Shown here piece after piece: positions 7,189-46,473 of a stretch of DNA of 64,000 nucleotides. The notes under the pieces are model-generated. The model searched no databases. It worked only from the letters and a program-made list of their open reading frames with translations, and was not told where the DNA came from. The stretch's first letter is position 1. Each line of letters opens with the position of its first letter. Origin of the DNA: an uncultured beta proteobacterium (GTDB lineage: Bacteria > Pseudomonadota > Gammaproteobacteria > Burkholderiales > Casimicrobiaceae); the NCBI GenBank assembly GCA_963745385.1, contig CAVUXI010000023.1, forward strand, positions 5,622-69,621, given 5' to 3'. Made by a program: the position numbers and the translations under genes.

Positions 7189-7275
7189 TTGCGCGGAAGC
7201 GATGCCAGGGGTTCGAGCAAGAGATGAGAGAATACGCGGTCGGGGGCCGCATCTCATTCAAGGGGAAATCGGACG

Positions 7276-7491
7276 GTGAAGTGTTTTTTCGACGATAACG
7301 AAGCGCGGGGCGTGTGCCGCTTTTGTGGAAGAGCCATGTGCAAGGAGCACGCCGACAAGCGGCTTCCCTATATCACGACGATCTACGTCGGCGCCAACAA
7401 CACGCCCAAAGCCGTCGTCGTTGCGGATGCGCTCTGGTGCGGCGAGTGCAGGCCCGAAGCACAGCCGGTGCCCATGCCGGAAATCTACTGA
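7276..7491 (+). CDS. Small Cys-rich (zinc-ribbon-like) hypothetical protein
   Basis: 71-aa ORF with GTG start. Two Cys pairs: CRFCGRAMCKEH and CGEC. Confidence 0.4.
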   Translation: MKCFFDDNEARGVCRFCGRAMCKEHADKRLPYITTIYVGANNTPKAVVVADALWCGECRPEAQPVPMPEIY

Positions 7492-7522
7492 TTCGATCCC
7501 CGAGATCGAGAAGGTGCCGACG

Positions 7523-7921
7523 CTAAAGCGGTGAGCTCTGTATCTGAGCGAACGCGTGCCGCGCGCTGTCGAGCTTGCGCTGCGCGGCCTTGACCTTCTT
7601 TGCATCGCCCGTGGCTTCGGCCTTGTGCAACTCGGCCTCGCTCCGGTCTATCCGGCGCTGCGCCTGCTCGAGCGCGACCTTGCGTTTTTGCTTGAGACCA
7701 TCGTCGCTGCAATGGACGATTTCGCCGCGCTCGCGCTCGAGACGGGCAAGCTGGCGGGCGTCACCTTTGGCTTTGGCTCGAGCGATCTCGGCGTCGATGC
7801 GGCACGCTTTGGCCGCACACCCATCCGCCTGCTCGCAGGACGCCGCGGCAAGGACGAGCGGCGCGCACGTGAGGATGGCTGCCGCCACCGCGGTGCGGAT
7901 ACACCAAGCCCGACAATTCAT
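7523..7921 (-). CDS. DUF1090-like (YqjC-like) periplasmic coiled-coil protein
   Basis: ATG at 7921 preceded by GGGGGAG. Signal peptide, then Lys/Ala/Glu/Arg-rich helical repeats with conserved Cys, resembling E. coli YqjC as I recall it. Confidence 0.6.
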   Translation of the reverse strand: MNCRAWCIRTAVAAAILTCAPLVLAAASCEQADGCAAKACRIDAEIARAKAKGDARQLARLERERGEIVHCSDDGLKQKRKVALEQAQRRIDRSEAELHKAEATGDAKKVKAAQRKLDSARHAFAQIQSSPL

Positions 7922-8044
7922 GGATCTCCCCCGGGTTTCAGCCGTCCAGGCTCGAATGCCGTCGGGCTGCCACCGAAATCTCAGGGCGATTATAGTAACT
8001 ATCCACCGTTCAGTGCAGCGCAACAGGAACGGCGGTGCCGGCGC

Positions 8045-9277
8045 CTACTTCGCTTCGAGCGACGAAATCAGTCGTTGGACGAAGCCGTCCATCGCTTTGC
8101 CGTCGATCCACCGCACGACCGCTACGAGGTCGTGCTCGCGATCCACGTAGATCATGTTGGTGCCGTTGCCGATGTGGACGAATGCGCTGGCGGGTGCGCT
8201 GGGCAGCAATTTCCGGTCGGTGTTGAGAAACCAGTTCATGAAGCCATAGGTCGGTTGCGCCGGCGTCGGCGTCTGTGCCCAGTCCATCCATTGCTTCGAG
8301 ATGAGCTGGCGATCTTTCCATTGACCGTGGTGCAGCGTGAGGTAGCCGAATCGCGCCATGTCATATGCGTGTATGACCATTCCGCCGCCCCAGTGGCCGC
8401 CGCCCGTCACCGACTGCATCAGCATGCCGTCGAGCACGATCCAGGAGTTTTCGTATCCGTACCAGCGCCAGGTGTTCGAGGCGCCGATGGGATCCATGAT
8501 GGTCTCCTTCAGAACCTGGGGCAGCGGACGCCGCCATACGTTGAGCGCGGCAAGCGCCAGCACGTTGACGCGGGTGTCGTTGTACTTGTAGACGCTGCCC
8601 GGCGCGTTTCGCGGGCGCGTCGTCCATTCCGCCGGCACGTCGCCCGGTCGGTCGGCCCAGTCAGGCTTGCCCCATAGCGTGCCTTCCCAGTCGCTTACCT
8701 GGCGCAGAAGATGGTCCCAGGTGATGGTGCGGTTGTGCGGCGTGTCGAACAGGTACAGAAAATCGGATGCGGCAAGGCTGTCGGATTTATTGCCCGAACT
8801 GCTGGAGTTGTACACAAGAACCGGCGGCACGTACTCCCGAACCGTGTCGTCGATGCTCTTGATCATGCCTCTGTCGAAAGCGATCCCAACTACGCTGGAC
8901 AGGAAGCTTTTGGTCACGCTGTGCGTCATGTCCACGCGCCATGGGTCGCCCCATTCAGCAACGATGTAGCCTCGGTAAACAATGACTCCGGTCGGGTCAC
9001 CGCGGTCCTTGATCGGTCCGATGGCGTAACCGAACGGTTCGCGCCCGAAGGTCTGGTAGTGGTTGAGCTTCAGATCGCGCGGCGACTTGGTCTCTGCGGA
9101 AATCGCGAAGTCGATGGCTTCCTTGAGCCGCGCGGGATCGATCCGCGCTTCCGCTGGAGTCTTGTGCTGCCACACGGCACCGGGGTAGTAAGTCGCAGCA
9201 TTGTTGCTGGGCTGCGCCGACGCACAGATCGGCACCACGAGCAGGAGCGCGTGCAAGACGATGCGATGAAAGCGCAT
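8045..9277 (-). CDS. Serine hydrolase, beta-lactamase/PBP-like family, secreted
   Basis: SxxK motif SVTKS and a signal peptide. The ATG at 9277 has GGAGA upstream. The ORF-track maximum start at 9289 is a TTG. Confidence 0.8.
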   Translation of the reverse strand: MRFHRIVLHALLLVVPICASAQPSNNAATYYPGAVWQHKTPAEARIDPARLKEAIDFAISAETKSPRDLKLNHYQTFGREPFGYAIGPIKDRGDPTGVIVYRGYIVAEWGDPWRVDMTHSVTKSFLSSVVGIAFDRGMIKSIDDTVREYVPPVLVYNSSSSGNKSDSLAASDFLYLFDTPHNRTITWDHLLRQVSDWEGTLWGKPDWADRPGDVPAEWTTRPRNAPGSVYKYNDTRVNVLALAALNVWRRPLPQVLKETIMDPIGASNTWRWYGYENSWIVLDGMLMQSVTGGGHWGGGMVIHAYDMARFGYLTLHHGQWKDRQLISKQWMDWAQTPTPAQPTYGFMNWFLNTDRKLLPSAPASAFVHIGNGTNMIYVDREHDLVAVVRWIDGKAMDGFVQRLISSLEAK

Positions 9278-9295
9278 GAGGTTCTCCAATCGGCG

Positions 9296-10441
9296 CTACG
9301 CCAGCGCCTGTTCGATATCGTCGAGGAGATCGTCGACGTGCTCGATGCCGATCGACAATCTCACCAGATCGGCGGGACACATCGTTCCGGGGCCTTCGAC
9401 GCTTGCGCGGTGCTCGGCGAGGCTCTCTACCGATCCCAGCGATGTCGCGCGTTTGAAGACCCGAAGCCTGGCCGTAAACGCCTTCGCTGCATCTTCACCG
9501 GCACGAAGGCGCACCGACATCATTCCTCCGAACCCGCCCTGCATTTGCTTGGCCGCCACGCCGTGCCCGGGATGCGCCGGCAAGCCGGGATAGAGCACGT
9601 GCGACAGCCTCGGGTGGCCGTCGAAACGCTCCGCGATCGCCTGCGCGCTGGCGCACGCCGCAGCCACGCGCAAATGCAGAGTCCGCATTCCGCGCAAGAG
9701 CAGCCACGCCTCGAACGGTCCCAGCACCGCACCGCAGCCGCCGCGCACGTACCGGATGCGGTGCCATAGCGCGTCGTCGTGCGCAGCGGCAAGCGCGCCA
9801 GCGATGACGTCGGAGTGCCCATTGAGATATTTGGTTGCCGAATGCATCACGACGTGTGCGCCGAGCTCGATCGGACGCGTCAGCATAGGCGTCGCGGAGG
9901 TCGAATCGACCCCGACGATGGCGCCCACTTCGTGGGCGATCTCGCTTGCGGCGGAGATGTCGGTGATCTCCCACGTCGGGTTGGCCGGTGTCTCTATCCA
10001 GATCAGCCGCGGCCGACCGGCCCGTGCTTTTTGCGCGAGATCGTCGATCGCGGCGTTGTCGTAGAACTCGATCGCGAGCCCCCACGGCGCGGCGTAGTCG
10101 AGCAGCCACTTGCGCAAGGCCCAGTACATGCTGCGGGGCGCGAGCACGCCGTCGCCCGGAGCGAGGGACTGAAACAGCGCGGCCGCGGCGGCCTGGCCGG
10201 AAGCAAACAGCATCGCGGCTGCGGCGCCTTCCAGCGACGCGATCAGCGCCTCGGCCTGGTCGTAGCTGGGATTGTCCGCACGCGAATAGACGCGTCCGCC
10301 CGGATAGGCGCCGTCTGCGCCGCGCTCATAGGTCGTCGAAACGTGGATAGGCGGGACGATCTCGGCGTACGGAACGGCGACGCGGCCCGTTCCCTGCGCG
10401 GCAATCGTCTCGCGACGCAGTTGGGATTTTCGGTCAGCCAT
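9296..10441 (-). CDS. Cys/Met-metabolism PLP-dependent enzyme (cystathionine gamma-synthase/beta-lyase family)
   Basis: 381 aa. PLP-lysine motif HSATKYLNGHSDVIAG. Family-typical N-terminus PPIHVSTTYE. Confidence 0.85.
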   Translation of the reverse strand: MADRKSQLRRETIAAQGTGRVAVPYAEIVPPIHVSTTYERGADGAYPGGRVYSRADNPSYDQAEALIASLEGAAAAMLFASGQAAAAALFQSLAPGDGVLAPRSMYWALRKWLLDYAAPWGLAIEFYDNAAIDDLAQKARAGRPRLIWIETPANPTWEITDISAASEIAHEVGAIVGVDSTSATPMLTRPIELGAHVVMHSATKYLNGHSDVIAGALAAAHDDALWHRIRYVRGGCGAVLGPFEAWLLLRGMRTLHLRVAAACASAQAIAERFDGHPRLSHVLYPGLPAHPGHGVAAKQMQGGFGGMMSVRLRAGEDAAKAFTARLRVFKRATSLGSVESLAEHRASVEGPGTMCPADLVRLSIGIEHVDDLLDDIEQALA

Positions 10442-10550
10442 CGTCGGTCATCCTGGCGTGAATTCGGAAATGCTGCGCAATCATGATAAATGAGGAACCG
10501 AAAGATCGGCCGACACCCAGGAGGAGTATAGTTATCGTGAATCCGGTCGA

Positions 10551-11618
10551 ATGCAGCGAATCATGACCTTCGCCTGGCCCGAAATGCTGTGGCTGCTTCT
10601 GTTTGCGCCTGCCTTGGTCGCTGCATACGTGTGGGCGCTGAAGCGGCAAAAGAAAGTCGCGCTCAGATACGCCAATCTGGGCCTCGTCAAGGATGCGCTG
10701 GGTCCCCGGCAGCGCATCCGGCGCCACATCCCGCCACTGCTCTTTCTGGTTGCGATGATCGCGGTCATCCTGGCGATCGCGCGTCCGAACGCCGTCGTGA
10801 CGCTGCCTTCCGACCAGCGCACGACCCTTCTCGTAATGGACGTGTCGCTCAGCATGCGCGCATCCGACGTGAAACCCAGCCGCCTCGAAGCCTCCCAGGC
10901 GGCGGCGAAGGAGTTCGTGAAGGAGCAACCCGCCGACGTCCGCGTCGGGATTGTCACGTTCGCCGGCACGGCATCCGTCGTGCAGCCGCCGACGCATAAT
11001 CGGGACGATCTGATCGCGGCCATCGACCGCTTCGAGCTTCAGCGGAACACGGCCATCGGCAGCGGCATCATCGTCGCGCTGGCGACGCTGTTTCCGGACG
11101 AGGGCATCGACCTCGAGTCGCTGGTGTTCCCCGGAGGATCGTGGGCTTCCCGCTCCAAGGGTGTCCCTATCGATCGCAGCCGGGAGCCTGAAAAGAAGGC
11201 GTTTACGCCGGTAGCCCCGGGATCCAATGCGTCGTCCGCGATCATTCTGCTCACCGACGGGCGGCGAACGACCGGCCCGGACTCGATCGATGCCGCCAAA
11301 ATGGCAGCCGATCACGGTGTCCGCATTTTCACCGTCGGGTTCGGGATGCCCGGAGGCGGCGTCGCCGACATGGACGGCTATTCGATGTACATGGCGTTCG
11401 ACGAAACGACCCTCAAGGCTATCGCCGAGACGACTCGCGGCGAGTATTTTCATGCGGCGAGCGGCGCGGAGCTGGCGACGATTTATCAGCGTCTGAATGC
11501 CCGTTTCGTGCTGGAGCGAAAGGAAACCGAGGTGAGCGCGCTTGCCATCGGCGCGGCGGCCATCCTGTTGCTCGCTGCGGGCATGCTATCGCTCACCTGG
11601 TTTAACCGCATCGTCTGA
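10551..11618 (+). CDS. VWA domain-containing membrane protein (BatA-like)
   Basis: N-terminal TM, MIDAS-type LLVMDVSLSMRASD, C-terminal TM. Alternative start at 10563. Confidence 0.8.
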   Translation: MQRIMTFAWPEMLWLLLFAPALVAAYVWALKRQKKVALRYANLGLVKDALGPRQRIRRHIPPLLFLVAMIAVILAIARPNAVVTLPSDQRTTLLVMDVSLSMRASDVKPSRLEASQAAAKEFVKEQPADVRVGIVTFAGTASVVQPPTHNRDDLIAAIDRFELQRNTAIGSGIIVALATLFPDEGIDLESLVFPGGSWASRSKGVPIDRSREPEKKAFTPVAPGSNASSAIILLTDGRRTTGPDSIDAAKMAADHGVRIFTVGFGMPGGGVADMDGYSMYMAFDETTLKAIAETTRGEYFHAASGAELATIYQRLNARFVLERKETEVSALAIGAAAILLLAAGMLSLTWFNRIV

Positions 11619-11704
11619 GAGAAAATTTCACTCGGCCGTCTTTGGACGACGCTTGTCGCCAGTCAGAACAAGCAAGCCTCGTTGTGGACATCAACAGCAT
11701 CAAC

Positions 11705-11730
11705 AAAAACGCCGCTCGCGCGGCGTTTTT
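11705..11730. terminator. Bidirectional rho-independent terminator between convergent genes
   Basis: AAAAACGCCGC-TCGC-GCGGCGTTTTT, a GC stem flanked by an A-run and a T-run. Confidence 0.6.
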
Positions 11731-11753
11731 GTCGGGGATGTCTCAGGCGCTAT

Positions 11754-12179
11754 TTATTTGCCGACGGTGGGCGGCCGCGCCGCTGTACTGCCCGGCGAGC
11801 CGGGTGCGCTCCGTGCCCGTCCGGGCGTTGCAGCGCTGACCCGGCTCTCGGGTTTCACCGTCCCGAGGAAGTCATCGATCGACAACGACGGCGAGCCGGC
11901 CTGGCCGAACACGAAAGCGGCCTGCGGGCAGCGGTCGACTTCGCTGATCATCATGTACTCGCCACGCTGGCGCATCGCCGCTCTCGCATCCGCGCCCTGA
12001 TCGCTTAGATCGACAGGCGGGATCGTGTCGCGGTAGACGACATTGTCGTTGCGGTCGAAGAGAACGTAGCAAATGAGGGCGTTGGCGGCGGTCCCGTACA
12101 GCGCGAGTGCAGTGCCGGCCAACAGGACGAGATGACGAATCGCAGGTCGCATCCGGAAGCTTTCAAGGGACGGATCCAC
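11754..12179 (-). CDS. Hypothetical exported protein
   Basis: ORF with a hydrophobic N-terminal segment (alternative ATG at 12152). No recognisable domain. Confidence 0.4.
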   Translation of the reverse strand: MDPSLESFRMRPAIRHLVLLAGTALALYGTAANALICYVLFDRNDNVVYRDTIPPVDLSDQGADARAAMRQRGEYMMISEVDRCPQAAFVFGQAGSPSLSIDDFLGTVKPESRVSAATPGRARSAPGSPGSTAARPPTVGK

Positions 12180-12321
12180 ATCCTATGCCCTGCGCAGCCG
12201 GGGTGCAATACGGCCCGAGTCCGAAACGAGGAGCTTCCGATGGTATTATCGGGCACAGCTGACGGGGGCCCTAGGGGCCGCTGAAAGCCGTGAAGGACAC
12301 CAACAACATCGGAGGGATCAG

Positions 12322-12762
12322 ATGAAGACAAGCTGGAGAATCGCCGGATCGGTCGCGCTCGTGACGGGCCTGCTTGCGGTCGGCGGATGGGCGTCGGCGC
12401 AGATGGGCAGCATGTCCGGGGGCGCCATGAACGTGACTCTAAGCGGAAGCAACGAGGTGCCGCCGGTCACCACTGCCGCCAAAGGAACCGGAACGATCAC
12501 GATCAAGGATGACCATACGGTGAGCGGGAGCATCACGGTGACGGGAATGACGCCCACGGCGGCGCACATTCACGAAGGCGCGCCGGGCGCCAACGGGCCG
12601 GTCATCGTTCCGATGACCAAGAGCGGCGACAACATGTTCATATTTCCGGCCACGGCCAAGCTTACCGACGCGCAGTACGCGAGCTTCAAGTCGGGAAATA
12701 CGTACGTCAACGTCCACACCGCTGCCAATCCGGGCGGCGAAATTCGCGCTCAACTCAAATGA
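12322..12762 (+). CDS. CHRD domain-containing periplasmic protein
   Basis: Signal peptide. CHRD-type motifs SNEVPPV, AAHIHEGAPGANGPV and YVNVHTAANPGGEIRAQL. Confidence 0.8.
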   Translation: MKTSWRIAGSVALVTGLLAVGGWASAQMGSMSGGAMNVTLSGSNEVPPVTTAAKGTGTITIKDDHTVSGSITVTGMTPTAAHIHEGAPGANGPVIVPMTKSGDNMFIFPATAKLTDAQYASFKSGNTYVNVHTAANPGGEIRAQLK

Positions 12763-15920: not shown

Positions 15921-16082
15921 GTGGACTGTAACAATCAAATAGCTGGCGTCTCGCTTGCCCTCGCCGGCCGCAGCGTTGTTGCTCGTCGTCACCATAGTAT
16001 TGACTATGCTTCCTCCTCGCGTCTAGCTGCAACCGACGATCGCTGCGCGATACTGGCTGCTGATTCAACTGTTACAGCCCAC
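15921..16082 (+). mobile_element. MITE-A copy 2
   Basis: Differs from copy 1 at 2 positions by eye. Flanked by TA (15919-15920 and 16083-16084). The right end overlaps the stop codon of the GGDEF-EAL gene. Confidence 0.85.
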
Positions 16083-18307
16083 TAGTGTGTATGCGCCCTG
16101 GACTGCACGATCGAATCCCAGAGAGGATCGCTTGTTTCCGGCATGGGGAGCGGCGCAGAGGCGCGGTTTTCGCGGAGAATTTCGGCGATTGCCGGCGCCG
16201 GGAGCGGCCGGCTGAGCAGGAAGCCTTGCATGATCGTGCAGCCCAAGCTGCCGAGAAAATTGATTTGCGCCTGCGTCTCGACACCCTCGGCAACGACGGT
16301 TAGCCTAAGGCTTTGCGCCATGGCGACGATGGCGCGGGTAATGGCCGCGTCGGCCTCGCTTTCGCCGGCATCGCGAATGAATGACTGATCGAGCTTGAGC
16401 TTGTCCAGCGGCAGCCTGCGCAGATACGACAGCGAGGAATAACCCGTGCCAAAGTCGTCGATGGCGATTTTCACGCCCATCGCACGCAGCGCGGTCAGCG
16501 TCTTCAGCGCAGCATCGAAATCCTCCATCAACATCGATTCGGTCACCTCGAGCTCGAGGCAATCCAGCGGCACGCTCACCACGCGCGCGATCTCCTGCAC
16601 GCGTTCGGCGAGACCGGGATCGCTGAATTGGACGCTTGAAAGATTGACGCCGATCGTAACCGCCGGCAGCCCCTGCTGACGCCAGGCGTTGTGCTGGATG
16701 AGCGCCGTCACGAGCACCCATTCCCAGATCGCCATAATAAGCCCCGCCTCCTCGGCGACCGTGATGAAATGGTTCGGTCCAAGCAGCCCGAGCGTGGGGT
16801 GATTCCAGCGTATCAGCGCCTCGATGCCGACGACTTCGCCGGTGCTGACGTTGATCTGCGGCTGGTAGTGCAACTCGAACTGCTCGCCCTCGATCGCCTT
16901 GCGCAGATCGTGCTCGAGCGAAAGGCGCTGCGCCGTCGCGGCGCGCATCGAGTCGTTGTAGAAAAAGAAGCGGTTGCGGCCCTCCGATTTGGCGTGATAC
17001 ATCGCGACGTCGGCGTTCTTGAGCAGCGAGTCGAGGTCGTCTCCGTCTCGCGGATAGAGGACGACCCCGATCGATGCCGACACGAATATTTCCTGCTCGC
17101 CGAGAACGATCGGCTGAGCAAGCGTTTCGATCAGCCGGTTGGCGGCGCGCGATGCGTCCTGTTCGGTCGCGACGCCGTTCAACAGGACGATGAATTCGTC
17201 GCCGCCCTGGCGGCATACATCGCGCTCCGCGCCTTTGCCCGGAGTAAGTCCGGCGATGTCCTCGCCGCGCAGCCCTCGCGTGAGCCGCTGCGCGATGATG
17301 CGCAAGAGGTCGTCGCCCACGGCGTGGCCGAGCGTGTCGTTGATGCGCTTGAAGTGGTCGAGATCGAGAAACATGATCGCGAAAGGCTTGGCGTTGCGTC
17401 TCGCGGCGTCGAGAGTCTCGGCAAGCTTTTCATGGAAACGGGAGCGGTTCGGCAGCTCGGTGAGGACGTCGAAATACGCCAAGCGGTGAATCTGCTGTAT
17501 CGCGCGCGTACGCTCGGTCGCGTCCTGCAGCGTACCGGCGACTCCCTTGATCCGTCCCGACTCGTCCACCAGCGCCTCGCCGAGGACGTGCACGTGCCGC
17601 AGATCTCCTACGGGCGCAACGACGCGAACGTCGAGTCCCTGCAGGGGTGTTCCGGTCGCCAGCTTGATGAGCCAGCGCCGGAAGGCGCGGCGATCGTCGC
17701 GGTGGATAAGACCCTGAATCGCCCCGGGCGTCGGATGAAACAGCCGGGGATCGACGCCGAGAATGCGAAAGAGCTCGTCCGAGCATTCGACGCGGTTGCC
17801 GGCACGCTCCCATTCCCAGCTGCCGACGCGGGCGATGCGCTGCGCCCGTATGAGCTGTCGGGCGGCGTGACGGCTCGCTGCATTCTCGCGGCCGGCCTCC
17901 TCGGTTGCGGATTTGAGCTGCCGCCGGTCCTCGATAATCTGGCGATGCGCGTACTTGAGATCGCGGGCAAGCCTTCGGAGACTGCGCCTCCAGGTGTTCC
18001 GGTAAGGCGATTTTCCAGCGGGCTTGGCCCCGAATTGAAGCAGCACCGTGTGCAGATCGGTCACTGCGTTGGCCAGCCGGCTGGACAGTATGGCGATCCC
18101 GAGGCAGCAAAGGGTGAGCGCGCCCAGAGCGAACTGCAGCGCCGTCACGTGTCCAAAATAGACCAGAGGCAGGAGGATCGCGTGCCCCAGCACCACTATC
18201 GCCAGGGCTTGACCGACGAAGCTGCGCACGAACGCACCGCGAGATCGGGTCCAATCCGGACCTTTCCCATCGTTGGTTTCGGGCTTCGACGTCGCTGGTT
18301 CGCTCAT
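16082..18307 (-). CDS. Membrane-bound PAS-GGDEF-EAL signalling protein (diguanylate cyclase/phosphodiesterase)
   Basis: GGDEF motif RQGGDEFIVLL. EAL motifs GIEALIRW and DDFGTGYSSL. N-terminal TM segments. Likely ATG at 18307; ORF maximum is 18352. Confidence 0.85.
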   Translation of the reverse strand: MSEPATSKPETNDGKGPDWTRSRGAFVRSFVGQALAIVVLGHAILLPLVYFGHVTALQFALGALTLCCLGIAILSSRLANAVTDLHTVLLQFGAKPAGKSPYRNTWRRSLRRLARDLKYAHRQIIEDRRQLKSATEEAGRENAASRHAARQLIRAQRIARVGSWEWERAGNRVECSDELFRILGVDPRLFHPTPGAIQGLIHRDDRRAFRRWLIKLATGTPLQGLDVRVVAPVGDLRHVHVLGEALVDESGRIKGVAGTLQDATERTRAIQQIHRLAYFDVLTELPNRSRFHEKLAETLDAARRNAKPFAIMFLDLDHFKRINDTLGHAVGDDLLRIIAQRLTRGLRGEDIAGLTPGKGAERDVCRQGGDEFIVLLNGVATEQDASRAANRLIETLAQPIVLGEQEIFVSASIGVVLYPRDGDDLDSLLKNADVAMYHAKSEGRNRFFFYNDSMRAATAQRLSLEHDLRKAIEGEQFELHYQPQINVSTGEVVGIEALIRWNHPTLGLLGPNHFITVAEEAGLIMAIWEWVLVTALIQHNAWRQQGLPAVTIGVNLSSVQFSDPGLAERVQEIARVVSVPLDCLELEVTESMLMEDFDAALKTLTALRAMGVKIAIDDFGTGYSSLSYLRRLPLDKLKLDQSFIRDAGESEADAAITRAIVAMAQSLRLTVVAEGVETQAQINFLGSLGCTIMQGFLLSRPLPAPAIAEILRENRASAPLPMPETSDPLWDSIVQSRAHTH

Positions 18308-18558
18308 TACGGCTCTGGACCTCGTTGGAAAGCACGTTCTACAGGCGAGCACCTACGGCCGCAACCGGTGGCGCAGTCCAAGTGATTTGCAAGGAATGTG
18401 CCAGCGAGGTCAACGCCTCCCTGCGAGCCAATGGAACGCCGCGAATCCCATGCTTCGATCGCGCATAGGCAGAAAGTGACGCGGCGGCGACGCAGCCCTA
18501 AGCCTTTCCGCCGTTGACGTGTCGCCACCGCTGGGACGTCATTGCCGCGAGTGGGTCG

Positions 18559-19733
18559 CTAGCGCATGTTGCCGGTGTGCCCCAGCGAGTAGCGTCCCGG
18601 CTGGGGCCAGACCGCCAGACCGTGCGGCTCCTTGCCGACGGGAATGCTTCTGAACTGGCCGCTGGCGGTATCGATCGCGTAGACCACGTCATCGAAGCGG
18701 CCGGCAAGCCACAGCGTCTTTCCGTCCGCGCTGACGTTGCCCATGTCGGGGCTTCCTCCGCCGGGAACAGGCCACGTCGCCTCGACCTTGCGCGTGGCGA
18801 AGTCCACCACCGAGACGCTGCCCTTGCCGTGCGGCCTGCCATGGATCTTGTTCGAGCCGCGATTCGATACGTAGAGCTTCTTGCCGTCGCGGCTGGGATA
18901 GAGGCCGTGCGTGCCCACGCCGGTCGCGATGAACGCGACCTCCTTGAACGTATCGCCGTCGATGACGAAGACGCCGTCGGCCATCATGTCCGCGACGTAG
19001 AACAGCTTGCCGTCCGGAGAGACGCGGATGTCCTGCGGCATGCCGCCTTTGGAGAGCTTCAGATAGCCGACCACTTTTCGCTCGACCAGGTCGATCTTGA
19101 CCAGGCGCTTTGTCGAATTCGCAGGTGAAAATCGCGTAGCGGCCATCGATCGAGAAGTCCGCGTGGTTGATGCCGTCGCACCGTGGCGCCTCGAGCGAGG
19201 ACTGCAGCTTCATGGTGTGCGGATCGCGAAAGTCGAGCCGCTTGTGCGCTTCGGCCACCACGATGGCCGAGTTGTCCGTCGGGCTGAAATACATGTTGTA
19301 TGGGTCGTCGACCTTGACCGGCGTCCCGGGCTTGCCGGTCTTCGGGATCGATCGGCGTCAGCGTGCCGTCGGTGCGGCCCTCCGCGTTGTTGGCCACCCA
19401 CAGTGTCTGAAGGTCCCACGAAGGAACGACGTGCTGCGGATTGATGCCGACCTTGAAACGGTCGACGACCTCATGGTCGCCGGATCGATCACGAAGACGC
19501 TCGTTCGACCGGACGTTGGGAACGTAGACGCGCGAGAGCGCGCCTGCGACTGCGGGGCTCAGGTGCCCGGCGGCGGTTTCGCTGTAGAGGTTGGTCGCAT
19601 CAATCACCGGCGGCATGCCGCGAACCGTCGTCACCGTGCGCGGTGCGGCAGGCGGCGACTGCGCAAGCGTCGGGCACGCGATGCAGAGAGCGATGGCACA
19701 AGCCAACGATTCGATATGAGGGTGTCGCTTCAC
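18559..19733 (-). pseudogene. YVTN-type beta-propeller repeat protein, multiply frameshifted (pseudogene or assembly indels)
   Basis: The coherent protein can only be read by hopping across three ORF-track frames (19059..20444, 18689..19294, 18559..19146). There is also a compensated +1/-1 pair at ~19468-19505. GTG start at 19733 with GGAG upstream and a signal peptide. Confidence 0.7.
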
Positions 19734-19783
19734 TGATGCTCCAGATGAAGATCCGAAGAACGAAGGATGGATGGAAGGGAACA

Positions 19784-20610
19784 CTATCGGCGAAGCGACG
19801 CTTTGCGGATCGCCTCGACGGTTTCGCGCGACGATCGCGTCGATCCCCAGCTGTCCCAGCTCCGCCGAGGCGCGGCGCGGATCGCCGTAGACGCCTTGCG
19901 CGCGCGTGGGGGCGGCCGTCGACTTGAGGAGATCCGTTCGTACCAAGCGCGGGTCGACGGCGAGGGTAAGCGCCGTGTCGGCGAGGCCGGCGTGCGTACC
20001 GATTTCCTCGTCGCGATAGCCGCGCGGCGAAGCGCATCCGCGTAGGATTTCTGCGTCGCGCCGTAGTATTCGACGATGGCATGCACGCGGACGGGCGTCG
20101 CTGCCCATTCGCGATTGAGTCGCTCCGCGACCGCGGATTCGTCTTTCTGGTAGCCGCCGTGATCGCCGAGAAAAACGATGTCGCGGAATCCGTGCAACTT
20201 GAAGCTTCGCGCCGCATATTCCAGAACGCTCTCGAATGTGGCGTCGGGCACGGTGATGGTGCCGGGAAAGCGCATATGCGCGCTGGGCGGATCGACGCTG
20301 CCTTCGGGAACGTAGGCGATGACCGGCGCGACCAGCGCGTTCGCCCAGCATGCGGGCGATCTTCTCCGCCAGCACCATGGCGCGCACGTTGTGCTTGCCG
20401 AGCGCCATATGCGGGCCGCTTTGCTCGGTTCCGCCTATCGGCACGATGACGATGGTCTTGCCGGCTCGGATCTGATCCGAGCTCGGTCCAGGTCAGGTCG
20501 TCGATCAGAACGGACGGTGGGACCTCCGCGCACACAGCCGCGCTCGTAAACAGCGTAAGCAGCAGGATCCGGATGGTCGCTCTCAGGATGGTCGCTCTCA
20601 TCGTGCGCAT
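19784..20610 (-). pseudogene. Creatininase (creatinine amidohydrolase) family protein, multiply frameshifted
   Basis: Family-like segments PIGGTEQSGPHMALGKHN, RFPGTITVP...FLGDHGGY and GTHAGLADTA are spread over three frames. Confidence 0.7.
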
Positions 20611-20749
20611 CTTAGGCGATCGATGCCGATCCCTACAAGCGAGTTACAAGCTTAGAACTCAAATTAGCCGCGATGATGCTGTAAAATCGCACGTTCGCCG
20701 GGCGCTGCTTGCGTCGCGCGCTCGACATTTCTCTTACCCGGATCGACCC

Positions 20750-21837
20750 ATGCGAGTGTTCAATTTCAGCGCCGGCCCCGCGGTGCTGCCCGAAGCCCGT
20801 GCTGCGGCAGGCCGCCGCCGAAATGCTGGACTGGCATGGCAGCGGCATGTCGGTCATGGAAATGAGCCATCGCGGCAAGGAATTCATCAGCATCGCGGAC
20901 AAGGCGCGAGGCCGACCTGCGTGCGTTGCTCGCGATTCCCGCCAACTACAAGGTCTTATTCCTGCAGGGCGGCGCGATCGCCGAAAACGCCATCGTTCCG
21001 ATGAACCTGCTCGAGGACAAAACGGTCGCGGACTACGTCAACACCGGCGAATGGTCGAAGAAGTCGATCAAGGAGGCGAAGAAATATTGCACGGTCAACA
21101 TTGCCGCATCGGCAGAAGACAAGCAGTTCACCTACGTTCCCGCCGCAGCGAGACTGGCAGCTGTCGCAAGGACGCGGCGTATGTGCACGTCTGCACCAAC
21201 GAGACGATCGGCGGCGTCGAATATCAATGGACGCCCGACACCGGCGACGTGCCGCTGGTTGCGGACATGTCGTCGCATATCCTTTCGCGCGTCGATCGAC
21301 GTCGCGAAGCTACGGCGTCATCTACGGCGGGGCGCAGAAGAACATCGGCCCCGCCGGGTCTGACGCTGGTGATCGTGCGCGATGATCTGCTCGACCGCGC
21401 GCTGCCCATCACGCCGTCGGCGTTCAAGTGGAAGGAGCAGGCCGAGGCCGACTCGATGCTCAATACGCCGCCGACCTATGCGATCTACGTCGCAGGCCTG
21501 GTGTTCGAGTGGCTCAAGGCGCAGGGCGGCATTGCCGCGATGGAGAAGCAGAATATCGCCAAGGCGGCGCTCGCTCTACGATTATCTCGACCGCTCGACG
21601 TTCTACTGCAATCCGGTGCGCAAGGAGGATCGCTCGCGAATGAACGTGCCGTTCCGCCTGCGCGACGAGTCGCTCGACGAAGCGTTTCTCAAGGGCGCCA
21701 AGGAGCGCGGCATGGTGCAGCTCAAAGGACACCGCGCGGTCGGCGGCATGCGCGCGTCGATCTACAACGCGATGCCCGTCGAGGGCGTCCGGGCGCTGGT
21801 CGACTACATGAGCGAATTCGAGAAGCGCCATGGCTGA
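20750..21837 (+). pseudogene. serC: Phosphoserine aminotransferase, multiply frameshifted
   Basis: [35 protein letters not shown] and ...[10 protein letters not shown] are recognisable but spread over all three forward frames (at least six shifts). Confidence 0.75.
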
Positions 21838-23027
21838 TACCAAATACCACATCCTGACCCTCAACCAGATCTCGAGCCAGGGCCTGCATCGCTTTCCCGG
21901 CCTCGCGCTACACCGTGGGCAAGACGGTCGATCATCCCGACGCGATCCTGGTGCGTTCGCACGACATGCTCGACATGGCGATTCCGCCGAGCGTCAAGGC
22001 GATCGGCCGCGCCGGAGCGGGCACGAACAACATTCCCGTTGCCGACATGTCGAAGCGCGGCGTGCCTGTGTTCAATGCGCCCGGCGCCAACGCCAATGCA
22101 GTGAAGGAGCTGGTCTTCACCGCGTTGCTGCTGGCGGCGCGCAACGTGATGCCCGCGCTCGGCTACGTCGCGGGGCTCAAGCGCGGAGGCTCGCGACCTG
22201 GAAAAGAGGGTCGAGGACGGCAAGAAGCAATTTGCCGGCGTCGAGCTGCCAAATCGCACGCTGGGAATCATCGGGCTCGGCGCCATCGGCAGCCTCGTCG
22301 CCGACACCGCGATCAAGCTCGGGATGAAGGTGATCGGCTTCGATCCGGAGATCACCGTCGACGCGGCGTGGCGCCTGCCGTCGAGCGTGCGCAAGGCCAA
22401 CAGCATCGAGGAGCTCCTCAAGCAATCGGATTTCGTCACGCTGCACGTGCCGCTTCTGGACGTGACGCGCCACCTGATCGACGAAAAGCGCCTCGCGCTG
22501 ATGAAGCCAGGCGCGGCGCTGCTCAACTTCGCGCGCGACGCGATCGTCGACGAGGACGCGATCGTCGCGGCGCTGCGCGCGCACGCTCAAGTACTACCTG
22601 TGCGATTTTCCGAGCGCCAAGCTGCATGCGGCGAGCCGCAGTGTCGCCGCGCTTCCGCACCTGGGCGCGTCGACCGAGGAAGCCGAGGAGAACTGCGCAG
22701 TGATGGTCGTCGACCAGGTGCGCGAGTATCTCGAGAACGGCGCGATCGCCAACGCGGTCAATTTCCCCAACGTCGACATGCCGCGCGAATCGCCGTACCG
22801 GGTCGCGATCGCCAATGCCAACGTTCCCAACATGCTGGGGCAGATTTCGACGAGCGATGGCGCGTGCCGGACTCAACATCCACAACATGGTCAACAAGTC
22901 GCGCGGCGAGATGGCGTACACGCTGGTCGACGTCGACAGCCCGATCCAGCCGCCGCTCATCGATGCGATCTCTGCGATCAAGGGCGTGCTGTCGGTGCGG
23001 GCGATTCCTGTGGAAGGCGCGGCGTGA
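21830..23027 (+). pseudogene. D-3-phosphoglycerate dehydrogenase-like 2-hydroxyacid dehydrogenase with C-terminal ACT domain, frameshifted
   Basis: The ATG overlaps the serC stop. GRAGAGTNNIP, GIIGLGAIGS, a C-terminal ACT-like segment and the end ...KGVLSVRAI are read across several frames. Confidence 0.7.
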
Positions 23028-23073
23028 ATCCCGCGTGCGGCTCAATCATACGAGGCGGCATCGAGGAGGCGTC

Positions 23074-24081
23074 ATGGTGATCCGTTGCACGTCAATGCTC
23101 GTCGGGTTTCTGGCGGCCGCGCTTTCGGCGCCGGTGCAGGCGGAGCTCGGCGAGATCAACGTCGCCCAGCAGTACGGCGTGAGCTTCCTCCCGCTGATGG
23201 TGATGGAGCGCGACAAGCTGGTCGAGAAGCACGCGAAGGCCGAGGGACTCCCGGACGTCAAGGTGAACTGGGTCAAGGTCGCAGGCCCCAGCGTGATGAA
23301 CGACGGCGTGATCAGCGGCGCGATCCAGTTCATCGCCGTCGGTGCGCCATCGCTGATCACTCTGTGGGACAAGACGCAGGGCAATGTCCAGGTCAAGGGC
23401 GTTTCCGCGATGACGACCTACCCGCTCTATCTCAACGTACGCAATCCGAACATCAAGTCGGTGCGGGACTTCAGCGACAAGGACAAGATCGCGGTTCCGT
23501 CGATCAAAGTTTCGACCCAGGCGATCATGCTGCAGATGGAGGCGGCGAAAACGTTCGGAGATGCGAACTATGCAAAGCTGGACCCCTACACCGTCGGACT
23601 GTCGCACCCCGACGCGTTGCTTGCGTTGACCAACAACACCGCCGGCGTCGACGCGCATTTCACGTCCTCGCCGTTTCACGAGCAGGAGATCAAGCTTCCT
23701 GGGGTGCGCACGCTCACGACCAACTACGAGATTCTCGGCGGACCCGCAACCGCGGTCGTGATTGCCGCATCGACCAAGTACCGCGAAGCCAACCCGAAAT
23801 CGTACAAGGCGTTCTACGACGCGTTGAAGGAAGCCATCGACAGCATCAATAAGGACAAGCGTGCCGCCGCCAAGGTCTATCTCGAGCAAGCCAAGGACAC
23901 CAAGGACACGGTGGATGACATCTACGGCATGATCAGCGCGCCCAACTACGCCTACACACTCACGCCGCAGAAAGTCGGCAAGACGGCGGATTTCATGCAC
24001 AAGATCGGCGCTATCAAGACCAAGCCGGCTTCGTGGAAAGACCTTTTCTTCCCCGAGGTGCAGGCGCTGCCCGGCGACTGA
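23074..24081 (+). CDS. ABC transporter periplasmic substrate-binding protein (NMT1/NitT/TauT-like)
   Basis: ATG with GAGGAGG upstream and a signal peptide. The ORF-track entry 22324..24081 is an artefactual upstream extension in the same frame. Confidence 0.75.
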   Translation: MVIRCTSMLVGFLAAALSAPVQAELGEINVAQQYGVSFLPLMVMERDKLVEKHAKAEGLPDVKVNWVKVAGPSVMNDGVISGAIQFIAVGAPSLITLWDKTQGNVQVKGVSAMTTYPLYLNVRNPNIKSVRDFSDKDKIAVPSIKVSTQAIMLQMEAAKTFGDANYAKLDPYTVGLSHPDALLALTNNTAGVDAHFTSSPFHEQEIKLPGVRTLTTNYEILGGPATAVVIAASTKYREANPKSYKAFYDALKEAIDSINKDKRAAAKVYLEQAKDTKDTVDDIYGMISAPNYAYTLTPQKVGKTADFMHKIGAIKTKPASWKDLFFPEVQALPGD

Positions 24082-24105
24082 CCGGCGCGTGGCTTCAGGC
24101 GTCCG

Positions 24106-25443
24106 ATGCGGATTCGCATAGGCAGCGGTGCGGGATTTTCGGGCGACAGGCTGGAGCCCGCGGTCATCCTTGCGGAGCAGGGCGACCTCGACTACCTGGC
24201 GCTCGAATGTCTCGCCGAGCGCACGATCGCGCTCGCCCAGCTTCGCAGAAGGGCCGATCCGGCGCAGGGTTATGATCCGCTGCTCAAGCGGCGGGTGGAG
24301 ATGCTGCTGCCCGTCCTCAAGCGTCGAGGCGTTCGCCTGATCAGCAACTTCGGCGCAGCGAACCCGCTTGCGGGGGCCGACGTCATTCTGGGTGTCGCGC
24401 GGCAGCTGGGCCTGCCGGTCAAGGTTGCCGTCGTGACAGGCGACGACGTGCTGGAAAAAATCGAGCGCGATCAGATGACGCTCGAGTCAGGCCGGCCGCT
24501 CTCGAGCTACGGCCCGCTGGTTTCCGCCAACGCGTATCTCGGCGCGGACGCCATCCTTCCGGCACTCGAGACCGGCGCGGATGTCGTCATCACGGGGCGT
24601 GTCGCCGACCCTTCGCTCTTCGTCGCGCCTATCGCACATCATTTCGGCTGGCGGCCGGATGAGCTCGATCGCCTCGCGCGCGCAACCGTCGTCGGTCATC
24701 TGCTCGAATGCGCCGGACAAGTCTCCGGTGGATACTTCGCCGACCCGGGCATCAAGGACATACCCGACATGGCGCATCTTGGTTTCCCGTTCGCCGATGT
24801 CGATGAGGAAGGCAATGCCGAGATCGGCAAGGTCGAAGGGACCGGGGGCGCGATCACGCTAGCGACGGTCAAGGAACAGCTTCTCTACGAAGCGAGCAAT
24901 CCCGGGGCGTATATCACGCCGGACGTGATCGCCGATTTCCGCGGGGTGACCCTGCGCCAGACCGCGCGCGACCGTGTCGCGGTCGAAGGCGGCCGCGCCA
25001 ACGGAAAGTCGCCCACGCTCAAGATCAGCGTCGGCTACCTTGCAGGCTACCTCGGCGAAGGCGAGATCAGCTACGCGGGCCGCAACGCGCTCGCGCGGGC
25101 AAAGCTTGCCGCCGAGATCATGCGCGAACGCTTGAGCGATTTATTCGAGGAGCTGCGCATCGACTATATCGGAAGTACATCGTCGCACCGCCGTTCTTTC
25201 GACGCCGCCGAGAACCCTTACGAAATCCGCCTGCGGGTCGCGGCGCGCGCAGCGACGGCCGAGCAGGCGTCGCTGATCGGTGAGGAAGTCGAAGCGCTGT
25301 ATTTGAACGGTCCCGCGGGAGGCGGCGGGGCGCGGAAGCGCGTCACCGAGCAGGTCGGCATCGTTTCGACGCTGCTCGAACGCGCCGCCGTCACGCCGAG
25401 CGTCACCATCAAGGAATGGAAACATGAGCCGGCGGCTGTATGA
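24106..25443 (+). CDS. DUF1446 / AtuA-like (acyclic terpene utilisation) family protein
   Basis: 445 aa. N-terminus RIGSGAGFSGDRLEPAV...DYLALECLAERT is typical of the AtuA family as I recall it. Confidence 0.75.
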   Translation: MRIRIGSGAGFSGDRLEPAVILAEQGDLDYLALECLAERTIALAQLRRRADPAQGYDPLLKRRVEMLLPVLKRRGVRLISNFGAANPLAGADVILGVARQLGLPVKVAVVTGDDVLEKIERDQMTLESGRPLSSYGPLVSANAYLGADAILPALETGADVVITGRVADPSLFVAPIAHHFGWRPDELDRLARATVVGHLLECAGQVSGGYFADPGIKDIPDMAHLGFPFADVDEEGNAEIGKVEGTGGAITLATVKEQLLYEASNPGAYITPDVIADFRGVTLRQTARDRVAVEGGRANGKSPTLKISVGYLAGYLGEGEISYAGRNALARAKLAAEIMRERLSDLFEELRIDYIGSTSSHRRSFDAAENPYEIRLRVAARAATAEQASLIGEEVEALYLNGPAGGGGARKRVTEQVGIVSTLLERAAVTPSVTIKEWKHEPAAV

Positions 25444-25729
25444 CCTCGCGCACTGTCGCGCGGGCGACAAGGGCGACACGTCGATCCTGTCGCTGATCGC
25501 CTATCGCGCCGAGGATTATCCGCTGCTCGTCGAACGCGTTACGGTCGAAGCGGTTTCGCGGCACCTCGCGGGAATCGTCGCGGGAGAGATACGGCGCTAC
25601 GAAATGCCGAAGCTCGGCGCCCTGCAGTTCGTCTGCGAGCGCGCACTCAACGGCGGCGTCACGACGTCGCTGGCCCTCGACGCCCACGGCAAGTCGCTTT
25701 CCTACGCGTTGCTGGAAATGACGATTTAG
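25424..25729 (+). CDS. Small partner protein of DUF1446 (DUF4387/AtuA C-terminal-like)
   Basis: 101 aa, overlapping the upstream gene by 20 nt. The CRAGDKGD motif and the gene pairing are remembered from other genomes. Confidence 0.55.
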   Translation: MSRRLYDLAHCRAGDKGDTSILSLIAYRAEDYPLLVERVTVEAVSRHLAGIVAGEIRRYEMPKLGALQFVCERALNGGVTTSLALDAHGKSLSYALLEMTI

Positions 25730-31879: not shown

Positions 31880-32906
<1,027 letters not shown>

Positions 32907-33028
32907 TGCGGCAGTCGCGAGGGAATCCGAGCATGATCGCGGCCTCGAAAATAGTACGCCGCACCCGCGACCTGCTCATGCGTCCAACAGATCTCGAATT
33001 TGTGCTGCAAATGCACAGCAATTTCAAT

Positions 33029-33604
33029 TCAGCGTAGCCACCAGTCTCCGGACACCATCTGCGCAACGCAGTCCTGAATGTGCGTGATCGTTGTCGCCTG
33101 AGCTGAGCGCCAATCACGTCCCAGCGCAAATGTCAGCAGCTTGCGGTGCTCCTCTGCGACTGGTTCTCCGCGAAAGACGGCCGCAAGCATGAGGTAGCGC
33201 AGATATTTGTCATAGATGCCCGCGTGCATGTCGAGAAGAACGCGCGAGCCGCAGGCGGAAATGAGTGCGTTGTGAAATTCCCAATCGTATCGCCGTAAGG
33301 TCTCCTCTTCAGACCGGTCTCCAGCGGCCATTCGCTTTTCCAATGACGCGAGCTTGTGGTGCGCCGCAACGACGCGTCCCTCCCATTCCACGTCGCCTGC
33401 CTCGAACGAGCTGCGCAGCGCGTCGCATTCGAGAAGCTGGCGCATGGCGGCGACCTCGCGCAGATTGTCGGGAGAGATCGATGCGACTTCGAAACCACGC
33501 GCGCCCTCCGCGGTGATGAGCCCTTCGGACGCAAGGCCGTTGAAGATTTCGCGCAAGGTGCTCACTGCCGAGCCATAGGCGTCTCTCATCCGATCCAGCG
33601 TCAA
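33029..33604 (-). CDS. GntR-family (FadR/FCD subfamily) transcriptional regulator, start uncertain
   Basis: The wHTH continues in frame upstream of the TTG at 33604 (...ETTYRRVRADIVYGRLAPGQKLTLDR...), but no ATG/GTG/TTG lies further upstream before the in-frame stop at ~33768. The C-terminus is an FCD-type helical domain. Confidence 0.65.
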   Translation of the reverse strand: MTLDRMRDAYGSAVSTLREIFNGLASEGLITAEGARGFEVASISPDNLREVAAMRQLLECDALRSSFEAGDVEWEGRVVAAHHKLASLEKRMAAGDRSEEETLRRYDWEFHNALISACGSRVLLDMHAGIYDKYLRYLMLAAVFRGEPVAEEHRKLLTFALGRDWRSAQATTITHIQDCVAQMVSGDWWLR

Positions 33605-33948
33605 TTTCTGGCCGGGCGCAAGGCGCCCGTAGACGATGTCGGCCCGGACGCGGCGGTAGGTCGTTTCGCCTACGGGCGTACTGGTCGGCCGCAGCGTCGC
33701 GCCGTCTTTGCGCCTGGCGAGCAGCCGCCAGTTCGCGCAGCTGTCCTGGGTGACTCGTCTGCGTCAATCTCGTGAGGCTGGATGGCGCATGTCGCATCTG
33801 GCACTTCTCCGACAATATCGATGATATTGATATTCTCCTATGAACATCATAATATCCGTCGCGAGCCGAAGATACACAACAATTGTCGGAACGGGCGACA
33901 GCTTCGTGGGTTCGCCTCGCTTCCGCGTAATCCAAAACGGAGGAGTTC

Positions 33949-34936
33949 ATGCAGACCAAGTTCACACGTCGTTCGCTGCTGGCGGCCGGTGCATCGATGC
34001 TGGCGCTCGGCGCGTTACCGCACGCCCGTGCGCAGGCACGGACCAAATTGCGTTTCAGCTCTGCGTTCACTGAACAGGATTTGCGCGCCGATGCATACAA
34101 GTCGTTTGCCACTGCGATCAAGGACGGCTACGACTTCGAGCCCTATTGGGGAAACACGCTGTTCAAGCAGGGCACCGAACTCATCGCCCTGCAGCGGGGC
34201 AACCTCGAAATGGTCAATCTCGCGCCCGCGGACATATCGAAGCAGATTCCCGCGTGGTCGCTGATGACTTCGGCTTATCTGTTTCGCGACGCAGCCCACC
34301 TGAAGAAGACGTTCAAGAGCGACGTCGGACGGGAGTTCATCAAGATGGCCCGCGACCAACTCGGTATCCAGATCATCACGCCCGTCTACTTCGGGTCGCG
34401 CAACGTCAATCTGAAGCCCGACCGCCAGATCAAGACCCCTGCGGACATGGCAGGAATCAAACTGCGGATGCCGCCTGGCGAGTTCTGGCAGTTTCTCGGG
34501 GAATCCATCGGCGCCAATCCGGTGCCGGTTGCGTACGCCGAGGTCTACACGGCGCTGCAGTCAGGCGCCATCGACGGCCAGGACAATCCGCTGGTCGCCA
34601 GCAAGCTCATGAAGTTCTACGAGGTAACGACTCAATTCGTCCTGACCGGCCACGTCATCGGGTACGACGTGATGACCATCAGCAGCAAGATCTGGGATGC
34701 AATGGCTGCCCGCCCAACAAGCGGCATTCCAGGCAGCCGCCGAGAAGGCGATCGACGACTACGTGGTGAAGTTCAGCGCGCAGGAAAAGGAGGTCCTCGA
34801 TTTCTTCAAGGCAGACGGCAAGAAGGTCTACACGCCCGACCTCAACGCGTTCCGCACGTTCGCCCAGAAGAAGTATCTCGACAAGTACGGCCAGGACTGG
34901 CCCAAGGGCGCGCTCGAACGGATCAACGCGCTGTAG
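33949..34936 (+). pseudogene. dctP: TRAP transporter substrate-binding protein (DctP family), single frameshift near 34709-34715
   Basis: Tat/Sec-like leader, DctP-type body. The C-terminal 75 aa continue in ORF 34697..34936. Removing one C from GCTGCCCGCCC restores ...WDAMAAAQQAAFQAAAEK... Confidence 0.75.
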
Positions 34937-35119
34937 CGAGACCGCAAGTATCACGTCTGGTGCTCAGCGTCGCCAGCCATTGCGCGCAATGGCTGGCTGA
35001 CTGGCCGCCGGTCGTCTGGACAGCTGCGTCTCCGCGCCGTCGATGGCCCCTAAGGACCCAACGATGTCGAGCAATTCGGTGAATCGCAAGCGGCATGGCT
35101 GAGAAGGCGGGCCGAGAAC

Positions 35120-35585
35120 GTGATCGTTGCGCTGATCGCGATCATGTTCGTCTCCTTCCTGCTGCAAATTGCCTTTCGCTATCTCCTGAACCGTCCGTTG
35201 GGCTGGACCGATGAAGTCACGGTCCTCTGCTGGGTGTGGCTGGTGCTATGGGGGGCGGCTTTCATATTGTCGGATCAAGGACGAGATCCGATTCGACATC
35301 GTCTACGGGCTTGTCTCCGAGCGAACTCGTCGTACGTTCACGGTGATTTCCAGCCTGGCATTGGTCGTTCTGTTCGTCGTCTCGCTGCCCGCTTCCTGGA
35401 ACTATGTGCTCTTCATGAAGCGTGAGAAGTCCGCCTATCTGGGAATGCGGTTCGACTATCTGTACTCCATCTACGTCATCTTTTCTGTCGCCTGCATCGT
35501 CAAGCACGCCTGGATCGCCTGGAACGCGTTTCGCGGCCGAGAATCGCCGGAGGTAGACGTGCTCGAAGATGGGGAGCGGATCTGA
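35120..35585 (+). pseudogene. dctQ: TRAP transporter small permease (DctQ family), frameshift near 35275
   Basis: The two overlapping ORFs 35120..35425 and 35211..35585 together give a DctQ-like 4-TM protein. The stop overlaps the dctM start (TGATG). Confidence 0.65.
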
Positions 35586-42011: not shown

Positions 42012-42023
42012 TTCGCAAAACCC

Positions 42024-42587: not shown

Positions 42588-42593
42588 CGGCCT

Positions 42594-43412: not shown

Positions 43413-43424
43413 ACGGAGACAGCC

Positions 43425-43816: not shown

Positions 43817-43845
43817 CGCTAGCGGATCGGAACCCGCGATGCAGC

Positions 43846-45045: not shown

Positions 45046-45176
45046 GCTGTACAGCGAATGAGCCGTATCGCGCAGCGATCGTCGGTGCAGCTCGCGAGGG
45101 CATGCGATACTATGGGTGACGACGAGCAACGCTGCGCGGCAGGCAACGAGACGCTAGCTATTTGATTGACAGTCGA
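45043..45176 (-). mobile_element. MITE-A copy 4, inverted orientation, degenerate (~80% identity with internal deletions)
   Basis: Aligns over its full length to the reverse complement of copies 1-3 (...CGAGACGCTAGCTATTTGATTG-ACAGTC). Overlaps the pobA stop codon. Confidence 0.55.
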
Positions 45177-45237
45177 AGACATGAAACATTGCAGACCGAA
45201 ATCGAAACGTTGATCGAGAAGTCGCATTCGAGCACAG

Positions 45238-46401: not shown

Positions 46402-46473
46402 GCCGGTCGCCAACGGGCGGCGAATGCCAACGCGAGGCAATCGCGGCGAGTGACGTCGTGCGCTGAGGTTCGC

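Follow-up and report, generated by a model that had tools for sequence, protein, structure and literature searches.

We put at about 85% the probability that the frameshifts crowded into positions 18559 to 23027 (block A) of a 64,000-nt stretch of contig CAVUXI010000023.1 (the window; assembly GCA_963745385.1, an uncultured Casimicrobiaceae bacterium) are errors of the deposited consensus, probably produced from two haplotypes, and not features of the organism's DNA. Block A holds a beta-propeller gene, a creatininase-family gene, serC (phosphoserine aminotransferase) and a 2-hydroxyacid dehydrogenase gene resembling that of phosphoglycerate dehydrogenase (PGDH). Judging from comparison with related sequences, the living bacterium almost certainly carries these four broken genes in intact form. 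The indels that break them are absent from the orthologous loci, and reverting them gives full-length, family-typical proteins without other lesions, as expected of a consensus artefact. They also lie at polymorphic sites, where they hold both alleles, or neither, as expected if two haplotypes were mixed.

The window has a high GC content (about 63%), and genes resembling its own come from metagenome-assembled genomes (MAGs) of Casimicrobiaceae and other betaproteobacteria. The coding frame was followed with a plot of GC content at third codon positions (GC3) and a self-trained codon hidden Markov model (HMM), the latter being used since segmentation by GC3 alone was too noisy. Both kept a single frame through a GGDEF-EAL gene (16103-18235), a gene for a solute-binding protein (SBP; 23005-24077) and an AtuA/DUF1446 gene (24117-25434). 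Between them, from 18562 to 23004, the frame switched every 60 to 660 nt, and the raw list of open reading frames (ORFs) was likewise fragmented in block A. Pairwise alignment with L041, the closely related contig described below, placed 24 indels of 1 to 2 nt within 18562-23027, about one per 186 bp: 19 insertions of one base, one insertion of two, two deletions of one and two deletions of two. Most of these were also unique to the window in a five-way alignment with four further loci (L023, L002, L024 and L036). Twenty-two fall within the 4,288 nt of coding sequence of the four genes and two in the spacer upstream of serC; the indel process thus disregards the boundary between coding and noncoding DNA. 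The features concerned are given here with every indel position, sizes being relative to L041 and protein lengths, in amino acids (aa), being those after reversion (healing) of the indels.

16082-18352, minus strand: PAS-GGDEF-EAL gene, left flank; intact, a single 756-aa ORF in one HMM frame
18559-19733, minus strand: YncE/YVTN-type beta-propeller gene, 390 aa healed; four indels (+1 at 19104, +1 at 19343, -1 at 19470, +1 at 19499)
19784-20610, minus strand: creatininase-family (PF02633) gene, 275 aa healed; four indels (+1 at 19829, -1 at 20022, +1 at 20343, -2 at 20479)
20611-20749, no strand: spacer between divergent gene pairs; two +1 insertions (20717, 20747)
20750-21837, plus strand: serC, 359 aa healed; eight +1 insertions (20793, 20908, 21139, 21166, 21291, 21306, 21354, 21570)
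21830-23027, plus strand: PGDH-like 2-hydroxyacid dehydrogenase gene, 397 aa healed; six indels (+1 at 21896, +1 at 22179, -2 at 22585, +2 at 22624, +1 at 22641, +1 at 22856)
23074-24081, plus strand: NMT1-type SBP gene, right flank; intact, no indel relative to L041
24106-25443, plus strand: AtuA/DUF1446 gene, right flank; intact, no indel relative to L041
25424-25729, plus strand: AtuA ferredoxin-like gene, right flank; intact, no indel relative to L041

The contrast with the flanks is sharp, as 11,034 nt of flanking coding sequence carry no frameshifting indel against the 22 of the block (Fisher test, p = 6.5e-13). The GGDEF-EAL gene has no coding indel relative to L041 and a ratio of nonsynonymous to synonymous substitution rates (dN/dS) of 0.083; for the right-flank genes (23074-25729), whose Pfam families were assigned through their L041 orthologues, this ratio is 0.07 to 0.16. 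The original prediction, made from the letters of the window and its ORFs, had described four genes with several frame changes each beside intact neighbors and had called the pattern patchy. The HMM, the GC3 plot and the 24 indels relative to L041 bear out the former, and the patchiness extends to a second large block (43392-51579). A compensated pair of shifts that it had pointed to is also there, as a one-base deletion at 19470 and a one-base insertion at 19499, between which the window reads SNERLRDRSGDHEVV in place of SNEVFVIDPATMSVV. A further shift, placed within a GGG/CCC run at 19344-19346, has to be relocated, since the GGG has the same length in all relatives and the extra C at 19343 adjoins the run. 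Finally, a 195-aa fragment of the propeller C terminus is on record as a called product of the deposited contig; the frameshifts are therefore present in the sequence as deposited.

Orthologous loci were sought in two ways. A scan of a genome collection with the intact SBP as query returned 40 loci, among which L023, L002, L024 and L036 hold all four block A genes beside the SBP-AtuA pair. In L023, a MAG locus whose contig has a MEGAHIT-style name, the four genes are all intact, and L002 and L024 align with block A from end to end. With the provisionally healed SerC as query, the matches listed contained only full-length homologues, mostly of 359 aa, the best being 90 to 91% identical. The contig of one of these homologues is L041, which has SPAdes-style naming and a k-mer coverage of about 5. 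It is 93% identical to the window at the DNA level and completely syntenic with positions 11.5 to 29.2 kb, and every one of its genes is intact, in the order CstA, Sel_put, WXXGXW, GGDEF-EAL, PCMT-like, propeller (390 aa), creatininase family (270 aa), SerC (359 aa), PGDH-like (397 aa), SBP (335 aa), AtuA (445 aa) and AtuA ferredoxin-like. Its propeller matches Pfam YNCE, and its PGDH-like protein carries the domains 2-Hacid_dh and 2-Hacid_dh_C. None of the orthologous loci compared shares a shift with the window. A near-identical intact sister copy was not found, the closest SerC among 5.8 billion proteins being the 90 to 91% identical ones.

Once all 24 indels are reverted, each of the four genes again reads as a full-length ORF free of in-frame stops. 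The healed propeller is full length, 96% identical to its L041 orthologue and matched by NCBIfam beta-propeller repeat models. The healed SerC passes both of its equivalog cutoffs, with 574.7 bits on NF003764 (cutoff, 253) and 534 bits on TIGR01364 (cutoff, 443.6), and its length of 359 aa is that of 112 of the 120 best homologues listed. The names originally given to the genes hold in this respect for serC. The other two enzymes, which had been called a phosphoglycerate dehydrogenase and a creatininase, match their families only below the cutoffs. The healed creatininase scores 91 bits against an NCBIfam cutoff of 235, which places it at family level only. The best NCBIfam matches of the healed PGDH-like protein are PGDH models, and it falls below the SerA equivalog cutoffs (249 bits on TIGR01327, cutoff 454; 201 bits on NF008759, cutoff 404). 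By its sequence, the gene beside serC may thus be described as one for a PGDH-like 2-hydroxyacid dehydrogenase, its function being inferred only.

Beneath the indels, no sign of decay was detected. Relative to L041, dN/dS is 0.14 to 0.16 in the healed block genes and 0.06 to 0.17 in most flank genes, the small Sel_put gene of the flank (82 aa) reaching 0.58. Replacements unique to the window at columns invariant among the references amount to 0.3 to 1.5% in the block genes and 0.8 to 6% in the flank genes. The healed SerC has one change at the 200 columns whose conservation is 97% or more, as compared with a mean of 0.99 in 147 homologues of 359 aa, and this single change sits at a site where the healing is ambiguous. 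In the healed block genes, then, neither relaxed dN/dS, stops nor an excess of conserved-site replacements, as pseudogenes would have them, was found. This agrees with the preference in the original prediction for an artefact over old pseudogenes, since the healed genes are full length, are under purifying selection and have no excess of conserved-site changes.

These observations also bear on whether the record should be taken literally, as a real, very recent and regionally clustered inactivation, in which about 24 frameshifts would have struck the four genes and the second block would have taken more than 40. Such a reading can appeal to the 195-aa propeller fragment, which is on record in the sequence as submitted. 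We nevertheless consider it very unlikely. Selection is unrelaxed, with no in-frame stops and no excess replacements, and the orthologues are intact in each relative examined. If indels arise less often than substitutions, as mutation studies in bacteria have indicated, eight of them in serC should have brought tens of replacements at conserved sites, and one is seen; eight independent frameshifts without accompanying substitutions do not fit neutral decay. Genuine clusters of pseudogenes, such as those of Mycobacterium leprae and recent symbionts, resemble block A in having adjacent genes with multiple frameshifts; in such decay, though, dN/dS is relaxed, stops occur in frame, and the indels are biased toward deletions and associated with repeats, and block A showed none of this.

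The spectrum of the indels is equally uncharacteristic of mutation. Insertions outnumber deletions by 20 to 4 (binomial p = 0.0015). The single inserted bases are 9 G, 8 C and 2 A, and 12 of the 19 are flanked by bases that differ from them. None of the 24 indels lies in a homopolymer run of at least 4 nt, although block A has 21 such runs, and neither a deletion bias nor an association with homopolymers or repeats, as in a mutation-like spectrum, was found. Bacterial mutation is reported to be biased toward deletions, so that the 20:4 ratio and the absence of any event in a repeat tract argue further against a real inactivation. Errors of the homopolymer type have been described for Nanopore consensus sequences. 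The block A spectrum matches neither that pattern nor the deletion bias reported for bacteria.

A second explanation that the spectrum addresses is random read noise, that is, a low-coverage or unpolished long-read stretch with residual errors unrelated to any second haplotype. Patchy, insertion-biased errors consisting of indels only would suit it, as would the fairly even spacing in block A (about 186 bp); the literature describes PacBio reads of the continuous-long-read type as richer in insertions than in deletions and consensus quality as dependent on coverage. Noise from Nanopore reads would be expected to favor homopolymers, and no such bias is present. The suggestion that the indels were noise of this kind, in homopolymers and from want of polishing, thus fails on its particulars, given that no event lies in a run of at least 4 nt and that the events occur at polymorphic sites, typically with both alleles in tandem. 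The latter property, set out below, leaves random noise an unlikely explanation.

Of the 24 events, 18 (three of the four deletions among them) fall precisely on sites at which L041 and the other relatives have different alleles, against a null expectation of 0.40 (p = 5e-4). Furthermore, in 11 of the 12 insertions that do not extend a homopolymer, the added base equals the allele found in other relatives at the adjacent orthologous position, and in most of these the neighboring base of the window is the L041 allele. The corresponding null is 0.30 when derived analytically (p = 1.7e-5) and 0.36 when simulated (p = 1e-4). Local alignments make the pattern explicit. At 19343, CTT-GGGATC in L041 and CTTCGGG-TC in the relatives have as their exact union the window's CTTCGGGATC; at 20343, GCGTTC-CCC and GCGT-CGCCC give GCGTTCGCCC, and at 20908, GGCGC-AGG and GGC-CGAGG give GGCGCGAGG, in both cases again the exact union. 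The same holds at 21291, where CGC-TCGATC and a relatives-like haplotype CGCGTC-ATC combine exactly into CGCGTCGATC. Both 2-nt deletions, conversely, drop a polymorphic dinucleotide (TT versus CG at 20479 and AA versus CG at 22585). Random noise should neither favor polymorphic sites (18 of 24 against the null of 0.40) nor copy the adjacent alternative allele (11 of 12 against 0.30 to 0.36, a result replicated in the second block). A real inactivation would likewise have to account for the two alleles of a single-nucleotide polymorphism (SNP) standing in tandem, and no mutational mechanism is known to keep both.

A consensus caller yields the two alleles in tandem when, within a mixed pile of sequences, the alignment represents a difference by an insertion paired with a deletion. 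Tandem alleles at polymorphic sites thus point to a consensus built from two haplotypes, and two collapsed haplotypes are, from the comparison of sequences, the most likely origin of the artefact. The consensus of 18.4 to 23.0 kb and of 43.4 to 51.6 kb would have been computed from a pile holding two slightly different haplotypes, which could come from two strains living together or from a near-identical duplicate that had been collapsed. A SNP or a polymorphism of 2 to 3 nt would there have been rendered by the aligner or polisher as an insertion plus a deletion and not as a mismatch, and the consensus would have combined the two inconsistently, usually keeping both alleles (+1) and sometimes neither (-1, -2). 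Outside the blocks, one haplotype would have contributed, or the two would have been identical, and the genes read through. The mixture probably lay in the reads, and the platform or pipeline was probably that of a long-read metagenome assembly. In the library searched, no paper describing this exact signature was found. The mosaic of alleles of the two kinds along block A was also considered as evidence of mixing and was judged uninformative, because more non-L041 alleles in serC and the PGDH-like gene are also expected from their stronger conservation.

It is important to consider what weighs against two mixed haplotypes as the source of these errors. The evidence for an artefact is wholly comparative, and the nearest independent assembly that can be read (L041) is only 93% identical. 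Among the insertions, that at 22856, outside homopolymers, lacks the signature, and that at 21570 bears it yet on inspection does not fit a simple union of two alleles. Seven of the 19 single-base insertions lengthen a run of 1 to 2 nt and are uninformative in the both-allele test. In the second block, for which the available references lie at a greater distance, the signature appears in only about half the insertions.

Two further readings would leave the deposited sequence correct. In the first, recombination would have produced genuine indels: tracts of 4 to 8 kb would have entered from a diverged strain, and heteroduplex mismatches or small loops would have been misrepaired with retention of both alleles. 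We regard this as a highly improbable course of events; if true, it would represent a new form of frameshift mutagenesis, tied to recombination, and serC together with the PGDH-like, aromatic-catabolism and transport genes would be inactivated in a lineage surviving as an auxotroph. In the second, the cell would recover the frames in vivo through programmed recoding (ribosomal frameshifting, transcriptional slippage or RNA editing), and for this the conserved frame segments, and nothing else, would speak. Twenty-two shifts in four functionally unrelated genes, with two more in a noncoding spacer, do not suit it; no shift lies in a homopolymer of at least 4 nt, as slippage requires (slippery heptamers were not formally screened), and no shift is conserved in any relative. 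On these comparisons, recoding is effectively refuted, since all orthologues lack the shifts, and we hold it to be the least probable of all the readings.

Frameshift errors in long-read metagenome assemblies are documented and have been attributed to limited coverage and localized population heterogeneity. As measured with IDEEL and corrected with proovframe or Kastor, they resemble those of block A in splitting genes by 1 to 2 nt into frame segments that match orthologues, in being open to healing by reference proteins and in being tied to coverage and local population heterogeneity. Classic Nanopore errors concern homopolymer length; block A differs in its 5:1 ratio of insertions to deletions and its avoidance of homopolymers. 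The window further differs in having its errors limited to two blocks, 4.5 and 8 kb long, within an otherwise clean contig. Comparable too are the consensus errors of collapsed strains or haplotypes polished under a haploid model, where indels likewise occur at polymorphic sites with the alleles both kept or both dropped, and with whose locally heterogeneous or collapsed segments the size of the blocks is compatible; the difference is that the alleles of the second haplotype are here inferred from relatives.

The second block repeats the main features of the first.

43392-51579, no single strand: frameshift-riddled block C, with pcaC, pobA, two LivK-type SBP genes, a MetE-like gene (minus strand) and LivHMGF

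Its HMM frame switches every 30 to 440 nt, and the best available references give 39 insertions of 1 to 2 nt unique to the window against 2 deletions, with none in a control stretch (40010-41209) under the same comparison. Of its 31 nonhomopolymer insertions, 16 bear the both-allele signature, the null being 0.28 (p = 0.004). Taken at face value, block C would imply that protocatechuate and 4-hydroxybenzoate can no longer be catabolized and that the uptake of branched-chain amino acids is lost, just as block A would suggest serine auxotrophy; the record would also inflate pseudogene counts. If the frameshifts are consensus errors, they are of no biological import, and in the organism the serC, PGDH-like, creatininase-family and propeller genes most likely work. 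The both-allele-in-tandem test itself can be carried out without reads on just a few related genomes, and it may serve to separate mixed-haplotype errors from pseudogenes in MAGs.

Some smaller observations concern the genes in and beside block A. In the N-terminal region of the creatininase-family gene, positions 20571-20600 are a perfect in-frame tandem duplication of 15 nt (GGATGGTCGCTCTCA twice) that is absent from L041; it could be genuine or another artefact of the consensus. Between the GGDEF-EAL and propeller genes, L041 has a gene for a 251-aa PCMT-like methyltransferase (its positions 7031-7786), where the window has only about 200 bp (18353-18558). The SBP gene (23074-24081) is 87% identical to that of L041, with a synonymous divergence (dS) of 0.45, as compared with about 96% and a dS of about 0.13 in its neighbors, and its 16 window-unique residue changes cluster at residues 130 to 232. 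Such a pattern suggests that the many SBP paralogues have undergone recombination or gene conversion with one another. In L039, L026, L020, L018 and others, at about 7500 to 12600, the GGDEF-EAL gene adjoins the SBP-AtuA pair without the four block A genes, an arrangement found in many Casimicrobiaceae MAGs; some genomes have several SBP-AtuA loci, and the loci without the block A genes are probably paralogous. That block A is a strain-variable insertion was considered and rejected, as the nearest relative, L041, has the same order of GGDEF-EAL, propeller, creatininase, serC, PGDH and SBP genes.

Elsewhere in the window, a stretch of lower GC content (0.55 to 0.60) at 31880-35585 has sparser frame breaks, in a Gfo/Idh/MocA-like gene (31880-32639), in DctP (near 34700) and in DctQ (near 35270). 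Scans for tRNA genes and for Rfam families at the gathering threshold returned none in the whole window (1-64000). Next to block C, a Logan contig of ERR12037363 (1,623 bp; about 41949-43571 of the window) encodes PcaG and PcaD identical to those of the window. It stops about 50 nt beyond the first block C insertion, and the partial gene at its end is nondiscriminating since the frame of the window is also open there. Many of the nearest relatives are Nanopore MAGs of the Microflora Danica, assembled with metaFlye and one round of Medaka. Two of these, L026 (5 in 1.1 kb and 7 in 2.5 kb) and L018 (4), have unique indels whose length is not a multiple of three, as against zero in L043, which is not such a MAG; indels of this kind may be common in Nanopore MAGs of the Microflora Danica type.

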